A stretch of DNA of 61,963 nt from Candidatus Omnitrophota bacterium (GTDB lineage Bacteria > Omnitrophota > Gorgyraeia > 2-01-FULL-45-10), in NCBI GenBank assembly GCA_016929115.1, contig JAFGJL010000077.1:1-61963 (forward strand). The letters run 5' to 3'. The notes under the pieces are model-generated. The model ran no database searches. It saw nothing but the letters and a program-made list of their open reading frames with translations, and had not been told where the DNA came from. Below, piece by piece: positions 1,625 through 25,125 of this stretch. The position numbers were made by a program, and so were the translations under genes. Numbering within the stretch: position 1 is the stretch's first letter; each line of letters starts with the position of its first letter.

Positions 1625-2434
1625 ATGAGCAAAATAAAAGCGATCATACTCAGGACAGCCGGAACGAACTGCGATAAAGAGACCGCGTTCGCGTTCGAGG
1701 CGGCGGGGGCTTTTACGGAACTAGTGCACATCAATGAGCTCACAGGGGGAGGGAAGAGGCTGGCGGATTACCAGGTCCTGGCCATACCGGGCGGCTTCAC
1801 TTACGGCGACGACATCGCGAGCGGCAAGATACTCGCCAATGAGCTGCGCTTCAAGCTGGAAGAAGACCTCCAGCGTTTCATGAAAGACGGGAAGCTCATC
1901 ATCGGCATCTGCAACGGTTTCCAGGTATTGCTGAAATCGGGGCTGCTCCCCAATTTCTCGGGCGATTTCCAGACTATCGAGTCGACGCTCACATTGAACG
2001 ATTCGGATAAGTTCGAGGACAGGTGGGTATACCTTAAGAATATCAAAAATCAAAAATCAAAAATCAAAACTAAGTGTGTTTGGACGGAGGGGGTCAAAGA
2101 TATCATCTATCTGCCGGTGGCGCATGGGGAAGGGAAGTTCATACCAAAGAACAAAGAGATCCTCGGAAAGCTCAAAAAAGAGGGGATGGTAGTATTTGAA
2201 TACGCGGATGAGAGGGGGGAGAGGGCGGATTATCCTTACAATCCCAATGGTTCGGTCGAGAACATAGCCGGCATATGCGATAAAACGGGGCGCATATTCG
2301 GGCTGATGCCGCATCCCGAAAGGCATATCAGCTCTTCCCAGCACCCCTCCTGGACAAGAAATAAAAAAGCCGGCCCTGGTGACGGATTTGCCATATTCAA
2401 GAACGGCGTGGATTTTGCGAAAAAATATTTGTAA
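1625..2434 (+). CDS. purQ: phosphoribosylformylglycinamidine synthase subunit PurQ (glutaminase)
   Basis: Class-I glutamine amidotransferase motifs GICNGFQ and HGEG...HPE. Lies directly after purL. Confidence 0.9.
   Translation: MSKIKAIILRTAGTNCDKETAFAFEAAGAFTELVHINELTGGGKRLADYQVLAIPGGFTYGDDIASGKILANELRFKLEEDLQRFMKDGKLIIGICNGFQVLLKSGLLPNFSGDFQTIESTLTLNDSDKFEDRWVYLKNIKNQKSKIKTKCVWTEGVKDIIYLPVAHGEGKFIPKNKEILGKLKKEGMVVFEYADERGERADYPYNPNGSVENIAGICDKTGRIFGLMPHPERHISSSQHPSWTRNKKAGPGDGFAIFKNGVDFAKKYL
2042..2069 (+). repeat. perfect (ATCAAAA)x4 tandem heptamer inside purQ
   Basis: Read directly: atcaaaa atcaaaa atcaaaa atcaaaa. It is translated as part of NIKNQKSKIKTK. Confidence 0.95.
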
Positions 2435-2488
2435 TTTAGCCCGACTTAATGTATTATTATTAGCATAATATACCGGCAGTTTGGAGAA

Positions 2489-3211
2489 ATGGATCATTCA
2501 ACGCAAACGATAAAAAAGCTCCCGCCCCAAAAAGACATCTTCAGCGACCATCTCGTCGATACGTACTTCTATCAAAAAAAGTCCGAAAAAAAGCCAGCCC
2601 CGCAGATAAAACATAAAAAAGCCGCGCCTTTATTAATCATTATCCCGTTAGTAATCGCTTTTATCGCCGCTTTTATAGCCGCCGCATTCTACGCCAACAA
2701 CTTCTACAAGAGGTCCGCAAGCCGGAGGCTGGCTAAAGCCACCGCGATCACTATCACTAAGGGCGGGGCGATCGAGAGAGACGTCGTCCAGAAGGCGGAA
2801 TTCCACGGTTACGCGAAAGGAAAAGGCTCGATAACAAAAGACCAGATCGTCCTGAAGAACATCAACAAATACAAATGGTCGGACCTGTCGCTCGATTTCC
2901 GGGTCCCGCTGGATTTTTCCGGCAAGCATCTTTCCATGGCGCTCAAGAGCAAGGTCGGCGGCGAGAAGATAAGCCTGGTCATGCGCGATTCGCATAACCG
3001 GTCGGTACGGCTGCGCGACATCTTCGTGACATCCAACTGGCGCACCGAGACGATACCCTTAAGCACCATCAAGCGCGATATAGACCTGTCCAATATAACG
3101 CACATGAGATTCGAATGCGATTATGTCGGCGAACCTGCCAAGGGAGCAGGCATTGCGGCCGAGGTCACTATTTACATAAAGGACGTAACGATAAAGAAGG
3201 AGGCACGCTAA
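2489..3211 (+). CDS. hypothetical single-pass membrane protein (Lys-rich N-terminal tail, beta-rich C-terminal domain)
   Basis: GGAGA lies upstream of the ATG. The N-terminal 45 aa are basic (KKSEKKPAPQIKHKKAAP). One TM helix (LLIIIPLVIAFIAAFIAAAFYA). The stop TAA abuts the ATG of the next gene. Confidence 0.65.
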   Translation: MDHSTQTIKKLPPQKDIFSDHLVDTYFYQKKSEKKPAPQIKHKKAAPLLIIIPLVIAFIAAFIAAAFYANNFYKRSASRRLAKATAITITKGGAIERDVVQKAEFHGYAKGKGSITKDQIVLKNINKYKWSDLSLDFRVPLDFSGKHLSMALKSKVGGEKISLVMRDSHNRSVRLRDIFVTSNWRTETIPLSTIKRDIDLSNITHMRFECDYVGEPAKGAGIAAEVTIYIKDVTIKKEAR

Positions 3212-4345
3212 ATGAGGATAATATCGATAACCAATCAAAAAGGCGGCTGCGGAAAGACTACGACAGCGATAAACCTGTCAAGCGCGCTGGCCCTGGCGGG
3301 AAGGAGGACCCTTATCATAGACCTTGACCCGCAGGCTCACGCCTCGTTCGGGCTCGGCATAACGAGCCAGCAGGCCGACAAGTCGATATATAACGTCCTC
3401 ACGGAAAACGACGAGAAGAGGCGACCGCTCGAGAGTTGCATCGTCAACGTATCTAAGAAGCTGGACATAGTGCCGTCGAGCATACTGTTGAGCACCCTGG
3501 AACAGGAACTGAAGGACAAGGAAGACGCGGTATCGAAACTGCACAATGTCCTGGTGGGCGCGAACCTGCCTTATGACTACGTCATCATCGACTGCCCGCC
3601 GAGCCTCGGGTTCCTCACCTTCAACGCGCTGAGAGCGGCGGCCCTCATCATAGTCCCGATCGACATGAGCGCGTTCTCGCTTATGGGCGTAGGAAAGCTT
3701 CTTGGCATGCTGGAGCTCATCAACCTCAAGATAGGGCATGTGCCGCGGGTGAAAGCCCTCGCCACGCTTTTCGACAAGAGGACAAAATACTCGCAGACGA
3801 TGTTCGACGAGATCAAGATGTTCTTCAGGGACCAGATGCTGGACTCGGTCATCCGGATGAACGTCGCGCTAAAGAAAGCGGTCCCTGCCGGCGTATCGGT
3901 CATGCAGTTCGAGCCCTACTCGACCGGCGCTTCCGATTACGGCGCGCTCGCCCAGGAAGTCCTCAGGATAGAAGGGGATTCGGAGTTCGAAAAGGCGATG
4001 GCCGAGGTCTCTGCCGAGACACAGGCCCCTGCTCCTATCCCGTCCGTTCCGTCTGTTCCGTCCGTCCCGGCCGCTCCGGCGATCTCTACAGGGGAGGCCA
4101 CGTTCGCTATCGACGCACCGGGCGCCAACGAAGTCTATGTCGTAGGCGATTTCAACAACTGGCAGGTCGGCAGCGACGGCAGGCTTTCGAAAAGCGAGAG
4201 CGGAAGATGGGAGAAACGGCTCGGCCTTTCATCCGGCAAGTACAGCTACAAGTTCGTCGTAGACGGCCAGTGGATCCTCGATACCAACAATGCCGAAAAG
4301 GAACAGAATTCCTTCGGGACTTTCAACTCGGTGCTGAAGGTCTGA
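3212..4345 (+). CDS. ParA/MinD-family ATPase fused to a C-terminal CBM48 / AMPK-beta-type glycogen-binding module
   Basis: Deviant Walker A NQKGGCGKTTTAINLS and ParA-like core to about aa 250. Pro-rich linker with (PSV)x3 at 4040..4066. C-terminus is EVYVVGDFNNWQ...GKYSYKFVVDGQWILD. An AAGGAGG SD lies inside the upstream gene. Confidence 0.8.
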   Translation: MRIISITNQKGGCGKTTTAINLSSALALAGRRTLIIDLDPQAHASFGLGITSQQADKSIYNVLTENDEKRRPLESCIVNVSKKLDIVPSSILLSTLEQELKDKEDAVSKLHNVLVGANLPYDYVIIDCPPSLGFLTFNALRAAALIIVPIDMSAFSLMGVGKLLGMLELINLKIGHVPRVKALATLFDKRTKYSQTMFDEIKMFFRDQMLDSVIRMNVALKKAVPAGVSVMQFEPYSTGASDYGALAQEVLRIEGDSEFEKAMAEVSAETQAPAPIPSVPSVPSVPAAPAISTGEATFAIDAPGANEVYVVGDFNNWQVGSDGRLSKSESGRWEKRLGLSSGKYSYKFVVDGQWILDTNNAEKEQNSFGTFNSVLKV

Positions 4346-4349
4346 TAAA

Positions 4350-4997
4350 ATGGCAATACTGAACGCGGATTTCATAAAAGAGGACCCCTGGCGCATATTC
4401 CGCATCATGAGCGAATTCGTTGACGGCTTCGAAGAGCTTTCGAACGTCAATAAGGCGGTCTCGATCTTCGGCTCATCGCGGGCAAAACCCTCGGACAAGT
4501 TCTATAAACTGGCGGAGAAGACCGCGGCCCTGCTGGCAAAGAACGGCTACGCCGTGATCACCGGCGCCGGGCCCGGCATCATGGAGGCGGCCAACAAAGG
4601 CGCTAAGGATGCGGGCGGTGACTCCATAGGCCTCAACATCCTGATACCGACGATGCAAAGACCTAACAGGTATGTGACGCGGCTGATTGAATTCAGGTAC
4701 TTCTTCTGCAGGAAAGTGATGTTCGCCAAGTACTCCAAGGCCTTCGTCGTCTTCCCGGGCGGTTTCGGGACCATGGACGAGCTCTTTGAGGCGATGACGC
4801 TGATACAGACCGAGCGCGTGGACCCGTTCCCGGTCATTATCGTCGGCGGCGAATACTGGAAGGACCTTGTGCGTTGGATAAAAGAGACCATGATCCGCTA
4901 CAATACTATCCATAAAAACGACATAAAGATATTCACAGTGGCGAATTCGCCCCAGGAAGTGCTCTCCGTAATAAAAAGGTTTTACAAGAAGAAATAG
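4350..4997 (+). CDS. LOG-family (TIGR00730-type) nucleotide phosphoribohydrolase
   Basis: PGGFGTMDELFE motif, GAGPGIMEAANKGA, and typical length of about 215 aa. Confidence 0.8.
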   Translation: MAILNADFIKEDPWRIFRIMSEFVDGFEELSNVNKAVSIFGSSRAKPSDKFYKLAEKTAALLAKNGYAVITGAGPGIMEAANKGAKDAGGDSIGLNILIPTMQRPNRYVTRLIEFRYFFCRKVMFAKYSKAFVVFPGGFGTMDELFEAMTLIQTERVDPFPVIIVGGEYWKDLVRWIKETMIRYNTIHKNDIKIFTVANSPQEVLSVIKRFYKKK

Positions 4998-8084: not shown

Positions 8085-8103
8085 AATTTTTGAATTTTGA
8101 TCT
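8058..8103. terminator. AT-rich hairpin between convergent genes (possible bidirectional terminator)
   Basis: agatcaaaatt (8058..8068) is the exact reverse complement of aattttgatct (8093..8103). It overlaps the 3' ends of both ORFs. Confidence 0.4.
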
Positions 8104-9322
8104 ATATCCTGGTCCCGTCCTTGATCACGGCGTTCTTGGGGACGATCACAATGCCGTCCCGTATAAAGTAACCATCGCCGTCAAACTGCCTCAATCCTTT
8201 CGCATTCCTTATCACGACGTTCCTGCCTATGCGCGCGTTCTTATCCACGATAGCCTTCTCTATGACGGAATTATCGCCTATGCCTGTCTTGACGGCGGCC
8301 GTGCTTTTGGCGTCTTCGTAATAATCTGCGCCCATGACCACCGTCCTGGCTATCTTGCAACCCTTTCCTATAGTGGTCCTCAAACCTATGACCGAATCCG
8401 TTATCTGGGCATTCTCTATCACGCTTCCTTCGGCTATGATAGCCCTGCGGATCTTGCACGTATCAAGTATCCTGGGAGCCGGTAAAAATCGGGGCCTGGT
8501 AAAGACCGAACCGCCGTAGAAGGCCGAGAACTGGGACCTTGACAGCGCCATCTCTATGTTGGCGTCGTAGAAAGACCTTATCGTCCCTATATCCCTCCAA
8601 TAACCGTGGAAGGAATACCCGTAGCCGCTGAACTTCTTTATAGAATGAGGGATGACCTCGCGGCCGAAATCTATATCGTTGCCTTCCAGGACCTTGGACA
8701 GGATGCGCGCATTGAAGATATAGACGCCCATCGATGCCAGATAAGAGCCTTTGTGCTTCAGCCCTTTTAATTCAGCGACGGCCTTGGGCTTTTCCCTGAA
8801 ACCGGTTATCCTATCATCGGCGCCGAGCTTCATGATGCCGAACTCTTTCGTCTCGCTCGCCCTGACAGGGAAGACCGACAGGCTAAAGTCGGCCTTCTTC
8901 TTCCTGTGAAAATTGATGAAATCCCGGTAGTCCATATCATAGAGATGGTCGCCCGAGAGTATCAATATATCCTCATTGCCCTTAAGCTCAAGATGCATTA
9001 TGTTGCGCCTGACCGCGTCGGCCGTGCCCTGGAACCAGACCGCGCTGTCGATCGTCTGTTCGGCGGCAAGGATCCTGACAAAGGCCCTGGAGAAATAGTC
9101 GAACCGGTAGGTATTATTGATATGGTTGTTGAGCGACTCCGAATTGTACTGCGTCAGCACGTAGATGTCTTTTATATTGGAGTGGAGGCAGTTCGAGATG
9201 GGTATGTCGATCAGCCGGTATTTGCCCCCTATGGGGACGGCCGGTTTGGAGCGGTACATAGTAAGCGGAAAGAGGCGTTTTCCCTGTCCGCCTCCGAGAA
9301 TCAGCGCCACGACCCTTTTCAT
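8102..9322 (-). CDS. glgC: glucose-1-phosphate adenylyltransferase
   Basis: N-terminus LILGGGQGKRLFPLTMYRSKPAVPIGGKYRLIDIPISNC and a C-terminal left-handed beta-helix region. Confidence 0.9.
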   Translation of the reverse strand: MKRVVALILGGGQGKRLFPLTMYRSKPAVPIGGKYRLIDIPISNCLHSNIKDIYVLTQYNSESLNNHINNTYRFDYFSRAFVRILAAEQTIDSAVWFQGTADAVRRNIMHLELKGNEDILILSGDHLYDMDYRDFINFHRKKKADFSLSVFPVRASETKEFGIMKLGADDRITGFREKPKAVAELKGLKHKGSYLASMGVYIFNARILSKVLEGNDIDFGREVIPHSIKKFSGYGYSFHGYWRDIGTIRSFYDANIEMALSRSQFSAFYGGSVFTRPRFLPAPRILDTCKIRRAIIAEGSVIENAQITDSVIGLRTTIGKGCKIARTVVMGADYYEDAKSTAAVKTGIGDNSVIEKAIVDKNARIGRNVVIRNAKGLRQFDGDGYFIRDGIVIVPKNAVIKDGTRI

Positions 9323-10228: not shown

Positions 10229-10528
10229 TTATGGCTCAAGTTTAAAGTATCCGCCTTTGATACGGATTATCTTTCCTTTAACAAGAGCTTCAGCCAGGCA
10301 CTTGCGGGCCTTCTTTAAAACCCTTGAAAAAGTCTGTTGGCTGACCCCCATAAAGAGCGCCGCTTCGGCCTGGCTTAAGTCCAACTGGTCGGCCAGCCTG
10401 ATCGCCTCGCGCTCTTCGAGCTTCAGCTCTATATGGTCAGGCCTTCCAACCTTGCCGCGCGGGCTGAACTGCCTTATCTTGGGCTCGTCTTTTATGACCC
10501 GTTGCTTTACAGGACGCCCTTTTGACAT
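10229..10528 (-). CDS. DUF134 (UPF0251) family predicted DNA-binding protein
   Basis: GRPVKQRVI...FSPRG...LKLEEREAIRLADQLDLSQAEAALFMGVSQQTFSRVLKKARKCLAEAL matches the DUF134 pattern as I remember it. Confidence 0.7.
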   Translation of the reverse strand: MSKGRPVKQRVIKDEPKIRQFSPRGKVGRPDHIELKLEEREAIRLADQLDLSQAEAALFMGVSQQTFSRVLKKARKCLAEALVKGKIIRIKGGYFKLEP

Positions 10529-11357: not shown

Positions 11358-11525
11358 TTAATTTGCGCCCTCCTGTGAATTCTCCGCGACAAACTTCTTT
11401 ATCTCGTCGATATTGTCCAGGATCATCCTCGCCTTGGAAAGGCCGAAAGAGAACGGATATTTATCGTTCTCATCCCTTCTTATGATCAACACCGGCTTAC
11501 CCTTAAATTCGCCTCTTTCAACCAT
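11358..11525 (-). CDS. unlisted 55-aa ORF (MVERGEFKGKPVLIIRRDENDKYPFSFGLSKARMILDNIDEIKKFVAENSQEGAN)
   Basis: AAGGAG lies 6 nt upstream of the ATG. It overlaps the 3' end of the upstream gene by 8 nt. Below the ORF-track length cut-off. Confidence 0.5.
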   Translation of the reverse strand: MVERGEFKGKPVLIIRRDENDKYPFSFGLSKARMILDNIDEIKKFVAENSQEGAN

Positions 11526-12390
11526 CGCTAGCTCCTTCTTTTTTATTGACCAGCACCGCCGTTATCTTTGTAAAAAGCGGCGCCTTGACCATGCCATACA
11601 CGGGAATCCGCAAATTATCGCACGAAAAATAACAGCTCGCGTTCCCTTTCTTCACCCGCTCCCCTTTCAGAACGGCGTACGGCTCCACATAGAACGTCTC
11701 GTACGTAACGTTGTCCAGCTTGATGAACGCCTTCTTTTCGATGAGCCCGAAGAGATTATAGACCTCCTCGTTGTTCACCACCGTATATCCCACCTTCTGC
11801 CCGACGTACGCGTCTACCGTCCTGAAGTAATACGCGGCGCTCAGGGAATCCTGTACGTCGCCGGGTATATCGAACGTCTTCCGGGAGCCGTCACACAGAT
11901 TATGAAAATAGGCCTTCTTCGCATTGTAATCGAAGACCGTGACGGCGTCCTTCTTATATCTCCCCTCCCTTCTCCTGACCACATGCTTAAGGCTCACATA
12001 CCGCTCTTTGTCGATATATGAGAGGTAGGTATCATCGACAGGATATATCTTTGAGCAAAAAGCGTTCGTCCTGGCGGTGAGCTCGACCACATACGCTTCC
12101 CTGCCTTCAAGGCGCTCGATGCCTTTTACGCGCGCCACCACCGTGGCGACCGGGATGCCGAGCCATGCCACTTCATAGGTAAGCTCTTCCCCGACCCTGA
12201 ACGGCGCGGCCGCCTTTTCGATCGCGATGTCCTTAGCCAGGATCTTGCGGTCTGCCGCAACGACAGAACCCTTGACGACCGCGGCCTTCGATGCGGCGCA
12301 CCCGGCCGATATGAGCGCAAGCAACACGCACCATCCTAGGACGCGGTAAAGCGCAACCCGATCGTTCTTTGATATACCCATATGATCCAT
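11518..12390 (-). CDS. DUF3108-like lipoprotein (tentative)
   Basis: Lipobox-like LLALISAGC. Beta-rich body resembling DUF3108 proteins. The start overlaps the upstream gene by 55 nt, so start choice is uncertain. Confidence 0.55.
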   Translation of the reverse strand: MDHMGISKNDRVALYRVLGWCVLLALISAGCAASKAAVVKGSVVAADRKILAKDIAIEKAAAPFRVGEELTYEVAWLGIPVATVVARVKGIERLEGREAYVVELTARTNAFCSKIYPVDDTYLSYIDKERYVSLKHVVRRREGRYKKDAVTVFDYNAKKAYFHNLCDGSRKTFDIPGDVQDSLSAAYYFRTVDAYVGQKVGYTVVNNEEVYNLFGLIEKKAFIKLDNVTYETFYVEPYAVLKGERVKKGNASCYFSCDNLRIPVYGMVKAPLFTKITAVLVNKKEGASDG

Positions 12391-13565
12391 GTCAGGGCGA
12401 AGATCTCAACGAACAAAAAGGATACCGATGCTCCAATCATACCATATTTCGGGATCAATATAAAGTTCGAAACGATGCTTAAAAGGGCGCTGGCCGCCGC
12501 CTGTTTCAATACAGCCTTTTCATGGCCTGTGGCTATCAGGCCGGTTGAGAAGGGCATGTTCAGCAGGACCATCATCACGCCGCCAAGCATTATGTTGAGC
12601 GGTATGCGCGCGGGAAGATATTGAGCACCCACGGTAATCGATATGAGATACCTGCTGAAAAAGACCAGGGGTATAAGCGCCGCTGCGATCAATATAAGCG
12701 AAAGGCGCAGGAATTTCTTCGTGACTCCGCGGAACTGGCCGACGTCATCGTGGAACGTATAGGTCAGGCGGGGCAACGCGGCGTTCGCGAGAAAGACCGT
12801 GAGGGCGGTTATGCCGCCCACGATCCTGCGCGAAACGGAGAAATACCCCACCTCGTGAGCACTCCTGAAGAATCCGAGGATGATGATATCAAGATTATTA
12901 TATGTCTGGACACATACCGAGATAAGCCATATGATGAGCGAACTGGACAGGTGCAGCCTCATCCTGGCCCTGTCGAGGTGCCGGACGTTAAGCCTGAAAT
13001 GCAACCGCCGTAAAAATATGGCGATGATCGGGACCGTGGCGAGAAAATACAGGATCGGCACCTTCAGCACGTCACCCGGCCCCTTTACGAAGACGTAGAT
13101 AAAGCCAAGCTGCAGAACGGCGGATGTGGTGAACGAGATGAAGACCATGTGCATCTTCTCTACGCCCTGGAACGCCCATTCCGTAGCCAACGCGGCCGTA
13201 AAGACAAGGAGGCAGCTTCCGGCGATCAGTAAGCGGACCAGGGCAGGCTGCTGCCACAGGGCGAGGGCTATGATTATGGTCAAGGCATACAGCGCGCACG
13301 CCACGATGAGCTTGAATGAGACGATATCCGAGACTATCTCCGTCAAGCGGCCCTTGTTGCGCGCGATCTCGCGCACGCCGTATGTCGAAAGGCCAAGATC
13401 GACGAAATTAAGGAGATAGAAAGCGAAGGCGCTTGCGTAGGAAAGGTAGCCGAACGCCTCGACTTTGAGCGCACGGGCAAGGTACATGAAGAGGACGGCG
13501 CTGAGAAGGCTGTTGGTGATGTTCGCCGCGGACATCCACATGAAGTTCTTAGAGACCTTTTCCAT
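12336..13565 (-). CDS. MOP/Wzx-type oligosaccharide flippase family protein
   Basis: About 12 hydrophobic helices, with an N-terminal NFMWMSAANITNSLLSAVLFMYLARAL typical of polysaccharide biosynthesis flippases. Confidence 0.75.
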   Translation of the reverse strand: MEKVSKNFMWMSAANITNSLLSAVLFMYLARALKVEAFGYLSYASAFAFYLLNFVDLGLSTYGVREIARNKGRLTEIVSDIVSFKLIVACALYALTIIIALALWQQPALVRLLIAGSCLLVFTAALATEWAFQGVEKMHMVFISFTTSAVLQLGFIYVFVKGPGDVLKVPILYFLATVPIIAIFLRRLHFRLNVRHLDRARMRLHLSSSLIIWLISVCVQTYNNLDIIILGFFRSAHEVGYFSVSRRIVGGITALTVFLANAALPRLTYTFHDDVGQFRGVTKKFLRLSLILIAAALIPLVFFSRYLISITVGAQYLPARIPLNIMLGGVMMVLLNMPFSTGLIATGHEKAVLKQAAASALLSIVSNFILIPKYGMIGASVSFLFVEIFALTWIIWVYQRTIGLRFTAS

Positions 13566-20482: not shown

Positions 20483-20893
20483 TTATATGCGATATACGCT
20501 ATCCCCTATCCTCACGCGGGATTTGACCAGAAGCCCTATCTCCTGGCCTTTCCTCCCCTCCTGTACCGGGACACGGTCGAGCTGGATCGACATGACCTTC
20601 TCCTTGAAATTGGTCGTGTGGCCCTTCAGGTAGATCTCGTCGCCTATCTTGAGGCTGTCCTTCATGATCATCACCGCGGCTGCCCTTACTTTGGGGAAAT
20701 AATGCGTCACCTCCCCGATCTTCTCGAGAGTCGCCTCCGGCGTCCTCAGGCGGCCCAGGCCCTTTCTTTTGGCGGGCGCCGCCTTTTTCTTCCTGGCGGC
20801 GCGCTTCGGCGCCTTCCTCCTGGCTGTCTTCTTCACGCGGGGTTTCGTCCGTTTCTTGCGGATGCTTGCCTTTTTACGCGCCATACAGGGCAC
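20483..20893 (-). CDS. translation-factor domain-II-like beta-barrel protein with a 50-aa Lys/Arg-rich N-terminal tail
   Basis: The C-terminal 85 aa (IGEVTHYFPKVRAAAVMI...IGDEIYLKGHTT...IGDSVYRI) resemble elongation-factor-like small proteins. The N-terminus is ARKKASIRKKRTKPRVKKTARRKAPKRAARKKK. Confidence 0.6.
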   Translation of the reverse strand: MPCMARKKASIRKKRTKPRVKKTARRKAPKRAARKKKAAPAKRKGLGRLRTPEATLEKIGEVTHYFPKVRAAAVMIMKDSLKIGDEIYLKGHTTNFKEKVMSIQLDRVPVQEGRKGQEIGLLVKSRVRIGDSVYRI

Positions 20894-22742: not shown

Positions 22743-23537
22743 TTACCCGAAAAATTCCTCGTCGGTATTGGTATTCCTGCAAATGCCGCGCTTTGAGGAA
22801 GATATGAATGAAAGCAGGTTCTCGACCTCTTTGCAGGGCGGAAGTTTTTCGATCTCATCAACTGCCTGCCCTATATTAAAGTTAGAGCGATAGAGCAGGC
22901 TAAAGGCCTTATCGAGGGCATGTATCGACTCGCGCGCGATCTTCGCCCTGCGCAGGCCCACAAGGTTCAAACAACGGACAGCCGAAGGACCCCGAACGAG
23001 CATGTACGGCGGTACGTCCTTATTCACGCCGGTAAATCCGCCTATCATAGCAAGGGTCCCTATCCTGCAGAACTGGTGGATGACGACATTACCCGATATG
23101 AACGCGCTGTCGCCGACCTCGATGTAGCCGGCCAGCAGCGCGCCGTTGGCTATTATGACGTTATTTCCGATACTGCAATTATGGCCTACGTGGGAAACGG
23201 CCATCAGATAGCAATTATCGCCTATTACGGTAGATGTGTCCTCTTTGGTCCCGCGGTGTATGGTGGCGTATTCCCTTATAACGGTCTTCTTACCTATAAT
23301 AGTATATGTCTTTTTGTCCTCGAACGCCAGATCTTGCGGTATATTGCCTATGACGGCCCCCATATGGATATGGGTGCCTTCGCCTATCTTTGTGCCGCTG
23401 CAGATGTAGGCATGCGGCCATATCCTGACGCCCGGCCCTATCTCGACTTCATCCTCTATGATGCAGAAGGGGCCTATCTCGACATCCGGCGCTATCTTTG
23501 ACCGCCTGCTCACTATCGCGCGTTCGCTTATAGCCAT
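22743..23537 (-). CDS. lpxA: acyl-ACP--UDP-N-acetylglucosamine O-acyltransferase
   Basis: Hexapeptide-repeat beta-helix plus a C-terminal helical domain (RGPSAVRCLNLVGLRRA) typical of LpxA. Confidence 0.9.
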   Translation of the reverse strand: MAISERAIVSRRSKIAPDVEIGPFCIIEDEVEIGPGVRIWPHAYICSGTKIGEGTHIHMGAVIGNIPQDLAFEDKKTYTIIGKKTVIREYATIHRGTKEDTSTVIGDNCYLMAVSHVGHNCSIGNNVIIANGALLAGYIEVGDSAFISGNVVIHQFCRIGTLAMIGGFTGVNKDVPPYMLVRGPSAVRCLNLVGLRRAKIARESIHALDKAFSLLYRSNFNIGQAVDEIEKLPPCKEVENLLSFISSSKRGICRNTNTDEEFFG

Positions 23538-23634: not shown

Positions 23635-25125
23635 TTAGAAGCTTACCTTCACAGTGCCGACGACGTCTGTAGCGGTCTTATCGGCATTGACGTAAACATC
23701 ACCGGGCACAAAGAACGCACCGAGGAGCCCAAAGCTGACGTCCTCAGTGTAGTCCCAATCTGCCGTAAGGTCCACTTCCTGGCCTATAAATCCACCATTG
23801 TGGATGTTGTCACCGACATTATAGAGGTAGTCGGCATAGGTCCAGAAGAGCAGGTACTTAGCCTGTAATGTCAGGCTCTCGACCGGCTGTATCGAACCGG
23901 TAAACGCGACCTGATGCTGGTTGGTGTATGACGCATCAGCGCAGCTGTTGATGTAGTTGGCTCTGGCCGGATAATCATAGCTGGCATAGTAGGTGCCGAC
24001 CCACTCGCGGATCGCCGAATCATACTTGCCTCTGAACATCCTGTCCCAACCATGCCACGTACCGGTGGCATTGTTCACGACCTGCTCATCGCTCGAACCG
24101 GAATACATGATGTACTCCGCTGCGAGTTTCGGCTTCCAAGCATACCTGTCCTGGAAGACTCTCCACTCGGCCGCAATGTCAAGGGCCCAAGCTGAGCGGT
24201 CTACTTCGTTCAACTGGGACCTGGAATTGATGACCGAACCGAACTGGTAAGCGCCTTCAGCCGCGATCGTGACAACGTCGATAGGATCGAAGCTGCCCCT
24301 CAAACCGAGGGTGTTGACGCTGTTTGAGCCCTTATTGCCGGCCCACTTCTCGACCTCCTGATCGTCCTTGTAGAACCAGTAAGCTTCGGCCTCTGCCCTA
24401 TACTGGTCGAACTTGTAACCTACGTTCACGCCCCACAGGTCGACATCGTCTGCCGGCGAGATCTCGTTCTCCCAGATCTTCGCGTACACGCCGGTGATCG
24501 TCCACGGATCGTAGTCGAGTACCGCCTTGATCGAGTCAAACGCGGTAGCTTCGCTGTACTCCGGGGCTCTCAGCCTGCCGTAGCCTGTGACAATAGCTTG
24601 GTTATACTGCGTCTGCGGCAGGTTCGCGCCGACGATGAAGCCCTTACCGAACCAGAGGTCCTGGCGACCGATGGTTACCGTCAAAGGCGAATAGATGAAC
24701 TCTTTCAACGTTACATAAGCAAGATCTACGTTAACGTTGAAATCGTTCATGTTTGCCACATAACCGCCATCCCCGTTAGGCTGCATGCCGGTGCCCTGAG
24801 CGATGGCCTTTGTCCTGACATCCCAGTCCCTTTCGTTGAAGAGCCTGATGCAGGTGGAGACGTTATCCGTCATATCCGCGTCGATCTGGACCGCAGCAAC
24901 CGTCATGAACCAGCTCTGTGGCGTACCGGGAACTCCGGTATCCGCAGTCAAACCGGTCCTGACAATGTCCGGCTCAGGTGTCGAGCCTCTGTAGTCATAG
25001 GCGCTCCTGAAGATGCCGCGCATCGTCAGGTCACCGCTGACCTTCACGCTCTGTGTCTCGGCGTAGGCCGCTCCTGCGAACAGGGCGACGAGCGCGAGCA
25101 CGCAAAGTACTCTTAAAACCTTCAT
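23635..25125 (-). CDS. outer-membrane beta-barrel protein (porin-like)
   Basis: Signal peptide MKVLRVLCVLALVALFAGAAYA. Alternating aromatic beta-strand pattern. C-terminal ...GTVKVSF. Confidence 0.75.
   Translation of the reverse strand: MKVLRVLCVLALVALFAGAAYAETQSVKVSGDLTMRGIFRSAYDYRGSTPEPDIVRTGLTADTGVPGTPQSWFMTVAAVQIDADMTDNVSTCIRLFNERDWDVRTKAIAQGTGMQPNGDGGYVANMNDFNVNVDLAYVTLKEFIYSPLTVTIGRQDLWFGKGFIVGANLPQTQYNQAIVTGYGRLRAPEYSEATAFDSIKAVLDYDPWTITGVYAKIWENEISPADDVDLWGVNVGYKFDQYRAEAEAYWFYKDDQEVEKWAGNKGSNSVNTLGLRGSFDPIDVVTIAAEGAYQFGSVINSRSQLNEVDRSAWALDIAAEWRVFQDRYAWKPKLAAEYIMYSGSSDEQVVNNATGTWHGWDRMFRGKYDSAIREWVGTYYASYDYPARANYINSCADASYTNQHQVAFTGSIQPVESLTLQAKYLLFWTYADYLYNVGDNIHNGGFIGQEVDLTADWDYTEDVSFGLLGAFFVPGDVYVNADKTATDVVGTVKVSF

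Follow-up and report, generated by a model that had tools for sequence, protein, structure and literature searches.

We found that a gene pair at positions 2489-4345 of a 61,963-nucleotide stretch of Candidatus Omnitrophota DNA (contig JAFGJL010000077.1, here called the window) encodes a ParA-type ATPase fused to an AMPK-beta-type CBM48 module together with an upstream membrane protein, and that the conservation of this pair in Omnitrophota points to a putative glycogen-related role rather than to immunity. The architecture itself is not new. A bioRxiv preprint (10.64898/2026.10.19.760177, 22 Oct 2026) describes, computationally, a ParA-CBM system termed ConB5, in which a ParA with a C-terminal AMPK1_CBM is preceded by a single-TM protein with an extracytoplasmic CBM or, in an alternative variant, is accompanied by a second, inactive ParA and an inactive REase, and for which immunity is proposed. 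The pair in the window has the former architecture, its upstream single-TM protein being CBM-like. The first-pass annotation of this DNA knew of no description of such a system and is superseded by the preprint on this point. Our literature search for ParA in connection with glycogen positioning returned nothing.

The partner gene (2489-3211, + strand, 240 aa) ends with a TAA (3209-3211, + strand) that directly abuts the ATG of the fusion gene at 3212 (3212-4345, + strand, 377 aa plus stop), an arrangement already reported in the first-pass annotation and seen directly in the sequence. A strong Shine-Dalgarno sequence for the fusion gene, AAGAAGGAGG (3195-3204, + strand, read from the sequence), lies within the end of the partner ORF, 8 nt 5′ of this ATG, and in 10 loci the two genes are in frame. 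A consensus scan located the promoter-like site TTGTAA-17-TATTAT (2429-2457, + strand) between purQ and the partner gene, which may weakly suggest a promoter of the pair's own; such sites were no more numerous than in shuffled sequence. A search for transcripts of the pair in the sole RNA run of the study yielded just 18-nt spurious matches. The idea that the fusion might be an assembly chimera, raised in the first-pass annotation, was ruled out by an independent Logan contig that covers 2300-4597 with 0 differences and by the recurrence of the same fusion in other genomes (see below). The neighbours of the fusion in the window are purQ, the TM partner and a LOG-family gene. As had been noted, no parB is adjacent: the genome's sole ParB_N match lies on another contig (C60), beside the parA of a canonical yidC-parA-parB locus, and ORF 3212-4345 was thereby confirmed as the genome's second, orphan ParA-type ATPase.

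The ATPase core (3212-3976, + strand, residues 1-255) contains the complete deviant Walker A motif KGGCGKT that the first-pass annotation had recognized, together with D37, D39-P-Q and D127. The fusion matched the AAA_31 profile with an E-value of 7e-51 and also matched CbiA; among solved structures, M. xanthus ParA comes closest (8RAY, E 1.7e-45), and the AF2 model of the core has a pLDDT of 86-98. Among the 81 relatives in which residue conservation was counted, the KGGCGKT motif (K10, K15), D37, D39 and D127 are invariant (81/81), which strongly supports a catalytically intact ATPase under strong purifying selection. The protein carries the deviant Walker A signature of the ParA/MinD (SIMIBI) ATPases. 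It does not conform to MinD, which has a C-terminal amphipathic helix that targets the membrane and MinE/MinC as partners: its C-terminus is the CBM48 beta-sandwich, and the minD models score far under their cut-offs. Members of the family are annotated merely as 'AAA family ATPase' or 'chromosome partitioning protein'.

With the chromosomal ParA/Soj proteins (8RAY; T. thermophilus 1WCV/2BEK; H. pylori 6IUB), the fusion shares a similar core (E 1e-33 to 1e-45), the signature lysine of the deviant Walker A, Walker A′ and Walker B and the hydrophobic character of a putative partner-peptide pocket at the dimer interface. It differs by the lack of an adjacent ParB/parS, by the C-terminal CBM48 and by KGGCGKT in place of KGGVGKT. 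We compared the nsDNA-binding patch with that of HpSoj (K199/K227/K230/K247) and of M. xanthus ParA (R238). At the equivalents of HpSoj K227, K230 and K247 the window protein carries M, A and Y, with R215, K221 and K222 nearby, and it has Ala at the position of the DNA-binding R238; it was from the former three positions that the idea of a loss of nucleoid binding arose. For the family as a whole this idea, which may still apply to the clade of the window protein, was rejected, as 70/81 relatives retain K/R at the R211/R238 equivalent and 77/81 gain a K/R at +2. In addition, R is kept at the R182 equivalent in 80/81 and K/R at the R194 equivalent in 69/81, whereas a non-basic residue replaces the R208 equivalent.

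This retention of much of the patch in most members, the position of chromosomal ParA/Soj proteins as nearest relatives and the presence of mnmG near the gene are all consistent with a Soj-like regulator, i.e., a nucleoid-bound ParA paralogue the availability of which is titrated by glycogen, so that chromosome or cell-cycle functions would be linked to energy stores. We consider this reading very unlikely: the 'PRN' arginine is gone throughout the family, Ala stands at the R238 equivalent in the window protein, the adjacency of mnmG is not conserved in relatives, and the acidic residue that receives ParB Arg13 is gone from most of the family. In the ParB-peptide site, the pocket residues (L150, L152, L155, L187 and L192 in M. 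xanthus) remain hydrophobic across the fusion family and Y81 is retained in 79/81 relatives, whereas D110, the acidic receptor of ParB Arg13, is replaced by L/V/I in 68/81, V116 by Q in 76/81 and E82 by N in 39/81, and E117 is E in only 48/81. Because the Arg13 receptor is dismantled, canonical ParB is unlikely to drive the fusion ParA; because the pocket stays hydrophobic while D110 and V116 are altered, it would fit a docking peptide with a changed central charge.

The core is followed by a flexible linker (3977-4096, + strand, residues about 256-295) with Pro/Ser/Val repeats, the Pro-rich PSV linker of the first-pass annotation, of which residues about 270-290 have an AF2 pLDDT below 50 and are modelled as disordered. 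Its column entropy is 3.2, compared with 1.6 for the ParA core and 1.9 for the CBM, and its length varies from 6 to 80 aa in the 81 relatives and reaches about 170 aa in others. Some relatives give a match that ends at residue about 250, and a swapped or absent CBM was considered for these; in all 10 that were examined, the same CBM follows a longer linker.

The C-terminal module (4097-4342, + strand, residues 296-377) is a CBM48 of the AMPK-beta type. The profile comparison proposed in the first-pass annotation placed it above the curated cut-offs of both AMPK1_CBM (51.0 bits vs 26.8, E 1.8e-13) and CBM_48 (24.4 bits vs 22.4), and it matched the AMPK beta1/beta2 CBM structures 4Y0G and 1Z0M with E-values of about 2e-8 (best 1.6e-8); its AF2 pLDDT is 96-97. 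The expected sugar contacts are W317, K347, W354, F368/G369 and N372. Both sugar-stacking tryptophans, W317 and W354, are invariant (81/81), and the remaining contacts are nearly so (K/R347 in 72/81, G369 in 80/81 and N/D372 in 80/81). W317, K347, W354, G369 and N372 are the equivalents of W100, K126, W133, G147 and N150 of AMPK beta1, the last of which we take to be a carbohydrate contact in the AMPK beta1 CBM-cyclodextrin structure. Mutation of W100, K126, W133 or G147 in AMPK beta1 disrupts glycogen binding (PMC6274970). The module differs from that of AMPK beta in being attached to a bacterial P-loop ATPase instead of a kinase scaffold and in having an aromatic residue at the L146 equivalent (F/Y in 61/81); its nearest relatives outside ParA proteins are multi-CBM48/CBM53 proteins. 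Because the sugar-contact residues are conserved across phyla, the ligand should be a conserved alpha-1,4/1,6-glucan and, because the fusion is cytoplasmic, glycogen or maltodextrin. The polysaccharide-binding module of the first-pass annotation can thus be assigned, with strong support from its invariant contact residues, a glycogen-type alpha-glucan as predicted ligand.

A survey of how widespread the fusion is, also suggested at first pass, identified it in at least 559 species-level genomes and in about 60% of 301 Omnitrophota genomes (181 positive, 120 negative; the classification of presence by E-value is fuzzy in family f48). It is all-or-none in 15 of the 19 larger Omnitrophota families, its similarity falls with taxonomic distance within the phylum, and it is kept in streamlined 1-2 Mb genomes. 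The co-occurrence with glg genes, likewise proposed for inspection, was in the expected direction, with glgA in 179/181 fusion-positive and 105/120 fusion-negative genomes (OR 12.8, p 3e-5, uncorrected for phylogeny), but because glgA is nearly universal (284/301) the test has little power and we set it aside as strong evidence. Many glgA-positive families (f3, f5-f8, f10, f13 and f23) are without the fusion, so that it is dispensable for glycogen metabolism. The first-pass annotation had also pointed to a nearby glgC. This gene is indeed present (8102-9322, minus strand), but it lies three unrelated genes from the pair and on the other strand, and its proximity is not conserved in relatives; we therefore rejected it as a functional link. 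A better genomic link to glycogen is the GH57 gene located at −2 in the loci of 23 relatives. PDB relatives of this GH57 (8ZYI, 9JLQ) bear a generic family title only.

At −3, many relatives' loci encode an AlgE-like outer-membrane porin. Together with weak BcsQ matches of the fusion (Pfam E 5e-9; TIGR03371 E 9e-22, far below cut-off), the porin could suggest that the fusion is an accessory ATPase, akin to BcsQ, of an apparatus for polysaccharide export that comprises the TM-CBM protein and the porin, a reading that appears highly improbable to us: the BcsQ scores reflect generic P-loop similarity, the cassette contains neither a synthase nor a glycosyltransferase, and the CBM48 lies in the cytoplasm and belongs to the glycogen-binding type. 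In the genome studied here the cassette is rearranged, GH57 being on contig C54 and the porin 20 kb off. Outside Omnitrophota, in Myxococcota and Desulfobacterota loci, the TM partner is absent, and a second ParA with a degenerate P-loop and an REase-like protein are found instead, as in the alternative variant of ConB5.

The immune reading of the preprint is that the CBM lectins sense carbohydrates made or depleted during infection and that ParA multimerizes and contains the invader; it is based there on rapid divergence of the CBM and on a sporadic distribution. That the preprint presents exactly the same architecture in both variants speaks for it, and so does the REase-like protein of the non-Omnitrophota variant (c16), which suits an immune role by matching the PADLOC candidates PDC-S18 and PDC-S11 (E 5e-9) and is accompanied by the ParA with the degenerate P-loop. 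In addition, no other part of the pair evolves as fast as the periplasmic domain of the partner (47% identity vs 73% for ParA). Within Omnitrophota, by contrast, both premises fail. The CBM48, with its invariant stacking tryptophans, diverges at roughly the pace of the adjacent GH57 (58% vs 64% identity) and less than the porin (47%), and the identities of ParA, CBM48, partner and porin all follow GH57 divergence (rho 0.6-0.76). The distribution there is lineage-conserved instead of sporadic. A search of PADLOC-DB 2.0 gave no match for the partner and just P-loop-level matches for the fusion (E 2.5e-4 at best); the neighbours in the loci are purL/purQ, a LOG-family gene, mnmG, GH57 and the porin, with no defence island, and the gene's persistence in streamlined genomes likewise argues against immunity. 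We thus regard the immune reading as quite unlikely for this pair, the evolution of which, judged from these comparisons, appears housekeeping-like in Omnitrophota.

The partner has no Pfam or NCBIfam match. It is homologous to the upstream proteins of about 190 aa in most Omnitrophota loci (hhalign 97.5%), and the pairing with the fusion noticed at first pass is upheld by its position at −1 on the same strand in 42/47 Omnitrophota-type loci. The AF2 model (overall pLDDT 84) predicts a bitopic inner-membrane protein in which an N-in peptide is followed by one TM helix and, in the periplasm, by a CBM-like beta-sandwich. A Lys-rich juxtamembrane tract, QKKSEKKPAPQIKHKK (2573-2620, + strand, residues 29-44), precedes the TM helix (2621-2695, + strand, hydrophobic core residues 45-69; hydropathy maximum 3.02; AF2 helix 48-83, pLDDT 96). 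The cytoplasmic placement of this N-terminal tail in the first-pass annotation agrees with the positive-inside rule in 38/41 family members, in which the N-flank contains more K+R than the C-flank (mean 6.2 vs 2.3, Wilcoxon p 5e-8). What had been described as a beta-rich domain was modelled as a jelly-roll of the CBM4/11/29/30 type (2744-3199, + strand, residues 86-237, pLDDT >90); Foldseek matched it to CBM30 (1WZX, 2C24) and CBM29 (1GWL) structures with a probability of 1.0, E-values of about 1e-7 and target-normalised TM scores of 0.6-0.7, and its W184 is invariant in the family.

The cytoplasmic N-terminus contains the conserved motif KDIFSDHLVDTYFY (2531-2572, + strand, residues 15-28; family consensus [KR]x[ED][IVL]Y[ED]HLAx[IVT]Y[LF]), in which L22, A23 and Y26 are among merely five near-invariant residues of the family. 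In the AF2 model, residues 16-27 form a helix with the hydrophobic register (i, i+4, i+7, i+8) that ParB shows in its motif for binding ParA (PMC12462528) and with an acidic residue at the position of ParB Arg13. Residues 15-28 probably constitute a ParA-docking peptide. The resemblance to ParB is only suggestive because the same register is common in amphipathic helices. The available portion of preprint 10.64898/2026.10.19.760177 makes no mention of this motif or of its ParB-like register. A structure prediction of the ATPase with this peptide, as called for at first pass, was performed on a read-through chain of partner and ParA, with the 10 loci with in-frame gene pairs as paired guide rows in the alignment; the N-terminal helix gained no confidence (pLDDT 52-59 vs 56 alone), an outcome that lends docking no support, in a model that is a monomer, whereas the pocket needs a dimer.

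The periplasmic location of the CBM-like domain weighs against a glycogen organizer. Bitopic topology, with conserved elements on either side of the membrane, would also fit transmembrane coupling or regulation instead of positioning: the periplasmic domain would report, or anchor to, an envelope or imported glycan, and the N-terminal peptide would switch the ParA-CBM, which would act at the granule as a scaffold for, or a regulator of, enzymes of glycogen such as GH57. The conserved cassette, with its AlgE-like porin and GH57, is in line with such coupling, as is the use of the same CBM as a glycogen sensor by AMPK beta (PMC2642990). We consider this combined reading unlikely, as the cassette is rearranged in the present genome and the TM partner is altogether absent from relatives outside Omnitrophota.

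The reading that we tentatively prefer, at somewhat below an even chance, is that the pair is an ATP-switched, bivalent tether or organizer of glycogen that docks on the ParB-like peptide of its membrane partner. The two genes would then form a module that handles cytoplasmic alpha-glucan (glycogen). ATP binding would produce the sandwich dimer common to all ParA/MinD ATPases, displaying two tethered CBM48 modules that would capture glycogen particles bivalently, through avidity. The dimer interface would create the hydrophobic pocket in which canonical ParA receives the N-terminal peptide of ParB; the partner helix would dock there and, through control of the ATPase, determine at the inner membrane how long the dimer lasts. 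Once ATP is hydrolysed, the dimer would revert to monomers and glycogen would be released. In sum, ATP would gate how glycogen is tethered, distributed and inherited relative to the envelope, and in relatives with a full basic patch the nucleoid may serve as an additional reference.

McdAB of carboxysomes and other ParA/MinD positioning systems (PMC10241942, PMC11407121) similarly employ an orphan ParA-family ATPase for a non-DNA cytoplasmic cargo, here a presumed one, and a partner with a short N-terminal interaction peptide. The present pair differs in that the cargo would be bound in cis and in that the presumed activator is an integral membrane protein, not a cargo-bound adaptor that stimulates the ATPase on a nucleoid matrix, so that the classic diffusion-ratchet wiring would not apply as such. 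It is possible, if doubtful, that the pair represents the first dedicated machine for organizing or partitioning a polysaccharide storage granule, with a wiring inverted relative to ParABS and McdAB. In such a machine, ParA would carry its own cargo receptor, as two tethered CBM48 modules per ATP dimer, and the regulator would be a membrane-fixed protein that mimics the ParA-binding helix of ParB with a reversed central charge, a reversal that would insulate the partner from the ParB of the same cell and make the envelope the reference for glycogen.

PhaM/PhaF-type proteins tether PHA granules to the nucleoid and thereby provide for even inheritance of a carbon-storage granule. The concept is shared with the pair described here; the proteins are unrelated, contain no ATPase switch and serve another polymer. 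To our knowledge, no bacterial system places or partitions glycogen, and the cargos to which ParA/MinD ATPases are known to be tied thus far, by separate adaptors, are DNA and proteins. The family is large. In Omnitrophota, the invariance of its sugar-binding residues, its enzyme-like rates of divergence, its conservation by lineage and its adjacency to GH57 lead us to infer a glycogen-related function and provide falsifiable grounds to doubt the immune assignment there; the analysis also names candidate residues and a partner peptide. If true, a polysaccharide cargo or a lectin-triggered ParA defence would, either way, be new biology for the ParA family.

Both ORFs of the first-pass annotation were confirmed: a predicted single-pass membrane protein of 240 aa, here called the partner (2489-3211, + strand), and a 377-aa ParA-CBM fusion (3212-4345, + strand) that matches Pfam AAA_31, CbiA and MipZ and, at its C-terminus, AMPK1_CBM and CBM_48. 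The TAA stop codon of the partner directly adjoins the ATG of the fusion, as read from the sequence; this start codon is preceded, at a distance of 8 nt, by a strong Shine-Dalgarno motif (AAGAAGGAGG). The pair is flanked by purL, purQ, a LOG/TIGR00730 gene, mnmG and a radical-SAM gene, with glgC on the opposite strand. The LOG/TIGR00730 (SLOG-fold) gene (4350-4997) begins 4 nt past the stop codon of the fusion and does not cluster with genes downstream of the fusion in relatives; in PADLOC it matches PsyrA weakly and over part of its length (E 1.4e-7, ~65 residues), probably through the shared Rossmann/SLOG fold only. Nearby envelope or polysaccharide genes, encoding a Polysacc_synt flippase-like protein (12336-13565), a DUF3108 protein (11518-12390) and an LpxA-like acyltransferase (22743-23537), all on the minus strand, are unrelated to the pair as far as we can tell.

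The source genome is a sediment MAG of 1.5 Mb and 90% completeness; nearly all of its closest relatives bear the label Candidatus Omnitrophota. Because the genome's canonical yidC-parA-parB genes lie on a separate contig (C60, locus L082: 108-1403, 1498-2331 and 2414-3292), the fusion is a second, orphan ParA, as had been proposed. We used this locus as an internal control for residue comparisons; its ParA contains KGGVGKT and IPRNIRITE, and its ParB begins with MEKKALGKGLSALIP. An assembly chimera, which the first-pass annotation had named as grounds for refutation, is excluded because an independent Logan contig spans 2300-4597 with 0 differences and the same fusion is present in at least 559 species-level genomes.

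HMM searches identified the ATPase as ParA (AAA_31, E 7e-51, plus CbiA), and among solved structures M. xanthus ParA is the nearest (8RAY, E 1.7e-45), ahead of T. thermophilus and H. pylori Soj. Because KGGCGKT, D37, D39-P-Q and D127 are all invariant across 81 aligned family members, we read the ATPase as an active enzyme under strong constraint. Where canonical ParA has Val (KGGVGKT), the family has an invariant Cys (81/81; Cys13, 3248-3250 in the window), a family signature that might conceivably serve in redox chemistry or metal binding. The non-specific DNA-binding patch of H. pylori Soj comprises K199, K227, K230 and K247 (PMC6393308), and R238 binds DNA in M. xanthus ParA (PMC12462528). 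Family-wide, the equivalent of R182 is Arg in 80/81, those of R194 and R238 are K/R in 69/81 and 70/81, respectively, and a new K/R occurs two residues on in 77/81, whereas the Arg of the canonical 'PRN' has given way to a non-basic residue; the patch thereby appears remodelled rather than lost. Because M, A and Y occupy the three conserved basic positions in the window protein, nucleoid binding is doubtful for its own clade. That the fusion is a Soj-like regulator seems improbable to us.

The predicted C-terminal module was recovered by AMPK1_CBM (51 bits, cut-off 26.8) and CBM_48 (24.4 bits, cut-off 22.4), and the carbohydrate-binding modules of AMPK beta1/beta2 match the last 93 residues (E ~2e-8). 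Mutation of W100, K126, W133 or G147 in AMPK beta1 disrupts glycogen binding (PMC6274970). The equivalents of these residues are strongly kept in the family (W317 and W354 in 81/81, K/R347 in 72/81 and G369 in 80/81). So is N/D372 (80/81), the equivalent of beta1 N150, which we take to be a sugar-contact residue in the beta1 CBM structure. Because the protein is cytoplasmic and its alpha-glucan site is conserved, the ligand would most plausibly be glycogen. An AF2 model of the fusion resolved the ParA core (pLDDT 86-98) and the CBM (96-97), with residues ~270-290 disordered; these comparisons firmly support a predicted active ParA-type switch that is flexibly tethered to a conserved module for alpha-glucan binding. 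Among the alternatives to the reading favoured below, glycan-responsive regulation is the likeliest, although still unlikely. Ten phylum relatives in which the CBM seemed missing, the match stopping after the ParA core, all carry it behind longer linkers (25 to ~170 aa). Apart from ParA fusions, the module is closest to multi-CBM48/CBM53 proteins; P0005-P0007 (477-479 aa) combine CBM48/AMPK1_CBM and CBM53-type modules without ParA, with 39-47% identity to the window CBM, and some proteins of this type are annotated as branching enzyme.

When the neighbouring genes at 80 related loci were clustered, the gene pair proved to recur: in 42 of 47 Omnitrophota-type loci, the gene immediately preceding the fusion, in the same orientation, encodes a single-pass membrane protein. 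The partner has no match in Pfam or NCBIfam; its relatives form two homologous clusters (hhalign 97.5%) of ~190 and ~270 aa, the window protein belonging to the latter. In its AF2 model (pLDDT 84), residues 16-27 form a short helix, a TM helix follows, and residues 86-237 fold into a beta-sandwich (pLDDT above 90) resembling the jelly-rolls of CBM30, CBM29, CBM4 and CBM11 (Foldseek; probability 1.0, TM 0.6-0.7). Because K+R residues flanking the TM helix average 6.2 on the N-terminal vs 2.3 on the C-terminal side (N > C in 38/41 family members, p 5e-8), the positive-inside rule predicts a cytoplasmic N-terminus, as proposed earlier for its basic tail, and a periplasmic CBM-like domain. The most conserved residues besides W184 and F208 are L22, A23 and Y26, within the N-terminal motif [KR]x[ED][IVL]Y[ED]HLAx[IVT]Y[LF]; a membrane partner with a conserved, predicted cytoplasmic peptide is thus firmly supported in Omnitrophota.

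This motif shares its hydrophobic register with the ParA-binding peptide of ParB, a register common in amphipathic helices, but has Glu or Asp at the position of ParB Arg13, which contacts Y81, E82, D110 and E117 of M. xanthus ParA (PMC12462528). The corresponding pocket of the fusion family is likewise hydrophobic and keeps Y81, whereas D110 is replaced by L/V/I in 68/81 members and V116 by Q in 76/81. This pattern fits a peptide site that has been kept but changed in specificity, and that may be insulated from the cell's own ParB. AF2 of the natural read-through chain (partner-Gly-ParA-CBM, with an alignment built for that chain) gave no pLDDT rise for the partner helix.

In 23 relatives the gene at -2 is GH57, and that of an AlgE-like porin comes before it. 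Because the GH57 of the window's own genome is on another contig (C54) and the porin 20 kb away, only the partner-ParA pair is constant, and the ancestral cassette is rearranged in the window. That GH57 (C54:16101-17744) is orthologous to the cassette enzyme, with 42% identity, and its solved relatives 8ZYI and 9JLQ bear generic GH57 titles only. In the window, homologues of genes bordering the cassette in most relatives, namely the AlgE-like porin (23635-25125), a small EF-Tu-domain-2-like protein (20483-20893) and DUF134 (10244-10522), are dispersed over 20 kb on the opposite strand. Export, as a function for the pair, is very improbable. Co-occurrence with glg genes was upheld in direction, glgA being present in 179/181 fusion-positive vs 105/120 fusion-negative genomes (OR 12.8, p 3e-5, without phylogenetic correction), but with glgA almost ubiquitous (284/301) this test is weak; many glgA-positive families are without the fusion.

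Our literature search on ParA plus glycogen found nothing relevant. The first-pass annotation knew of no such system; the architecture has, however, been described in a bioRxiv preprint dated 22 Oct 2026 (10.64898/2026.10.19.760177), which names it a 'CBM-containing system' (ConB5). There ParA is combined with AMPK1_CBM, and the accompanying genes encode either a single-TM protein, located upstream and equipped with another CBM on the extracytoplasmic side, or an inactive REase together with a further ParA that is itself inactive. Both variants occur among our loci, the second in Myxococcota and Desulfobacterota, and the window pair is a real, conserved module that belongs to this system. In six loci outside Omnitrophota (L050, L052, L057, L066, L075 and L077), which represent the second variant, the +1 gene encodes a second ParA-like protein (283-328 aa) with a degenerate P-loop and the +2 gene a NucS/REase-like protein of ~190-230 aa matching PADLOC candidates PDC-S18 and PDC-S11 (E 5e-9). 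In two Myxococcota-type loci (L057:7235-7768 and L075:276-746), the gene immediately preceding the fusion encodes a MerR-like HTH protein. The closest relatives of the fusion (L001 and L002, 59-60% identity) have no TM partner, their upstream ORFs being short and spurious-looking, and have a conserved 145-aa ORF after the fusion; L002 also has transposase-like and PIN-domain genes in its vicinity.

The preprint proposes an immune function on the grounds of rapid CBM divergence and sporadic distribution. Both premises fail for the window's variant because CBM48 identity is near that of GH57 and the distribution follows lineages. Across 22 loci with the cassette in common, mean identity was 73% for the ParA core, 64% for GH57, 58% for CBM48, 57% for a small membrane protein and 47% for the partner and the porin, and the divergence of each protein correlated with that of GH57 (rho 0.6-0.76). 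Of 301 genomes sampled throughout the phylum, about 181 (60%) encode the fusion; it is all-or-none in 15 of the 19 families represented by 4 or more genomes and drops in similarity as taxonomic distance grows. PADLOC gave no match for the partner and P-loop-level matches only for the fusion, and the neighbours of the pair are housekeeping genes; we give immunity a low probability, a little below that of glycan-responsive regulation. The reading that we favour, tentatively, is that the pair may serve in ATP-gated, bivalent tethering or organisation of glycogen, for which the membrane partner would serve as the reference.
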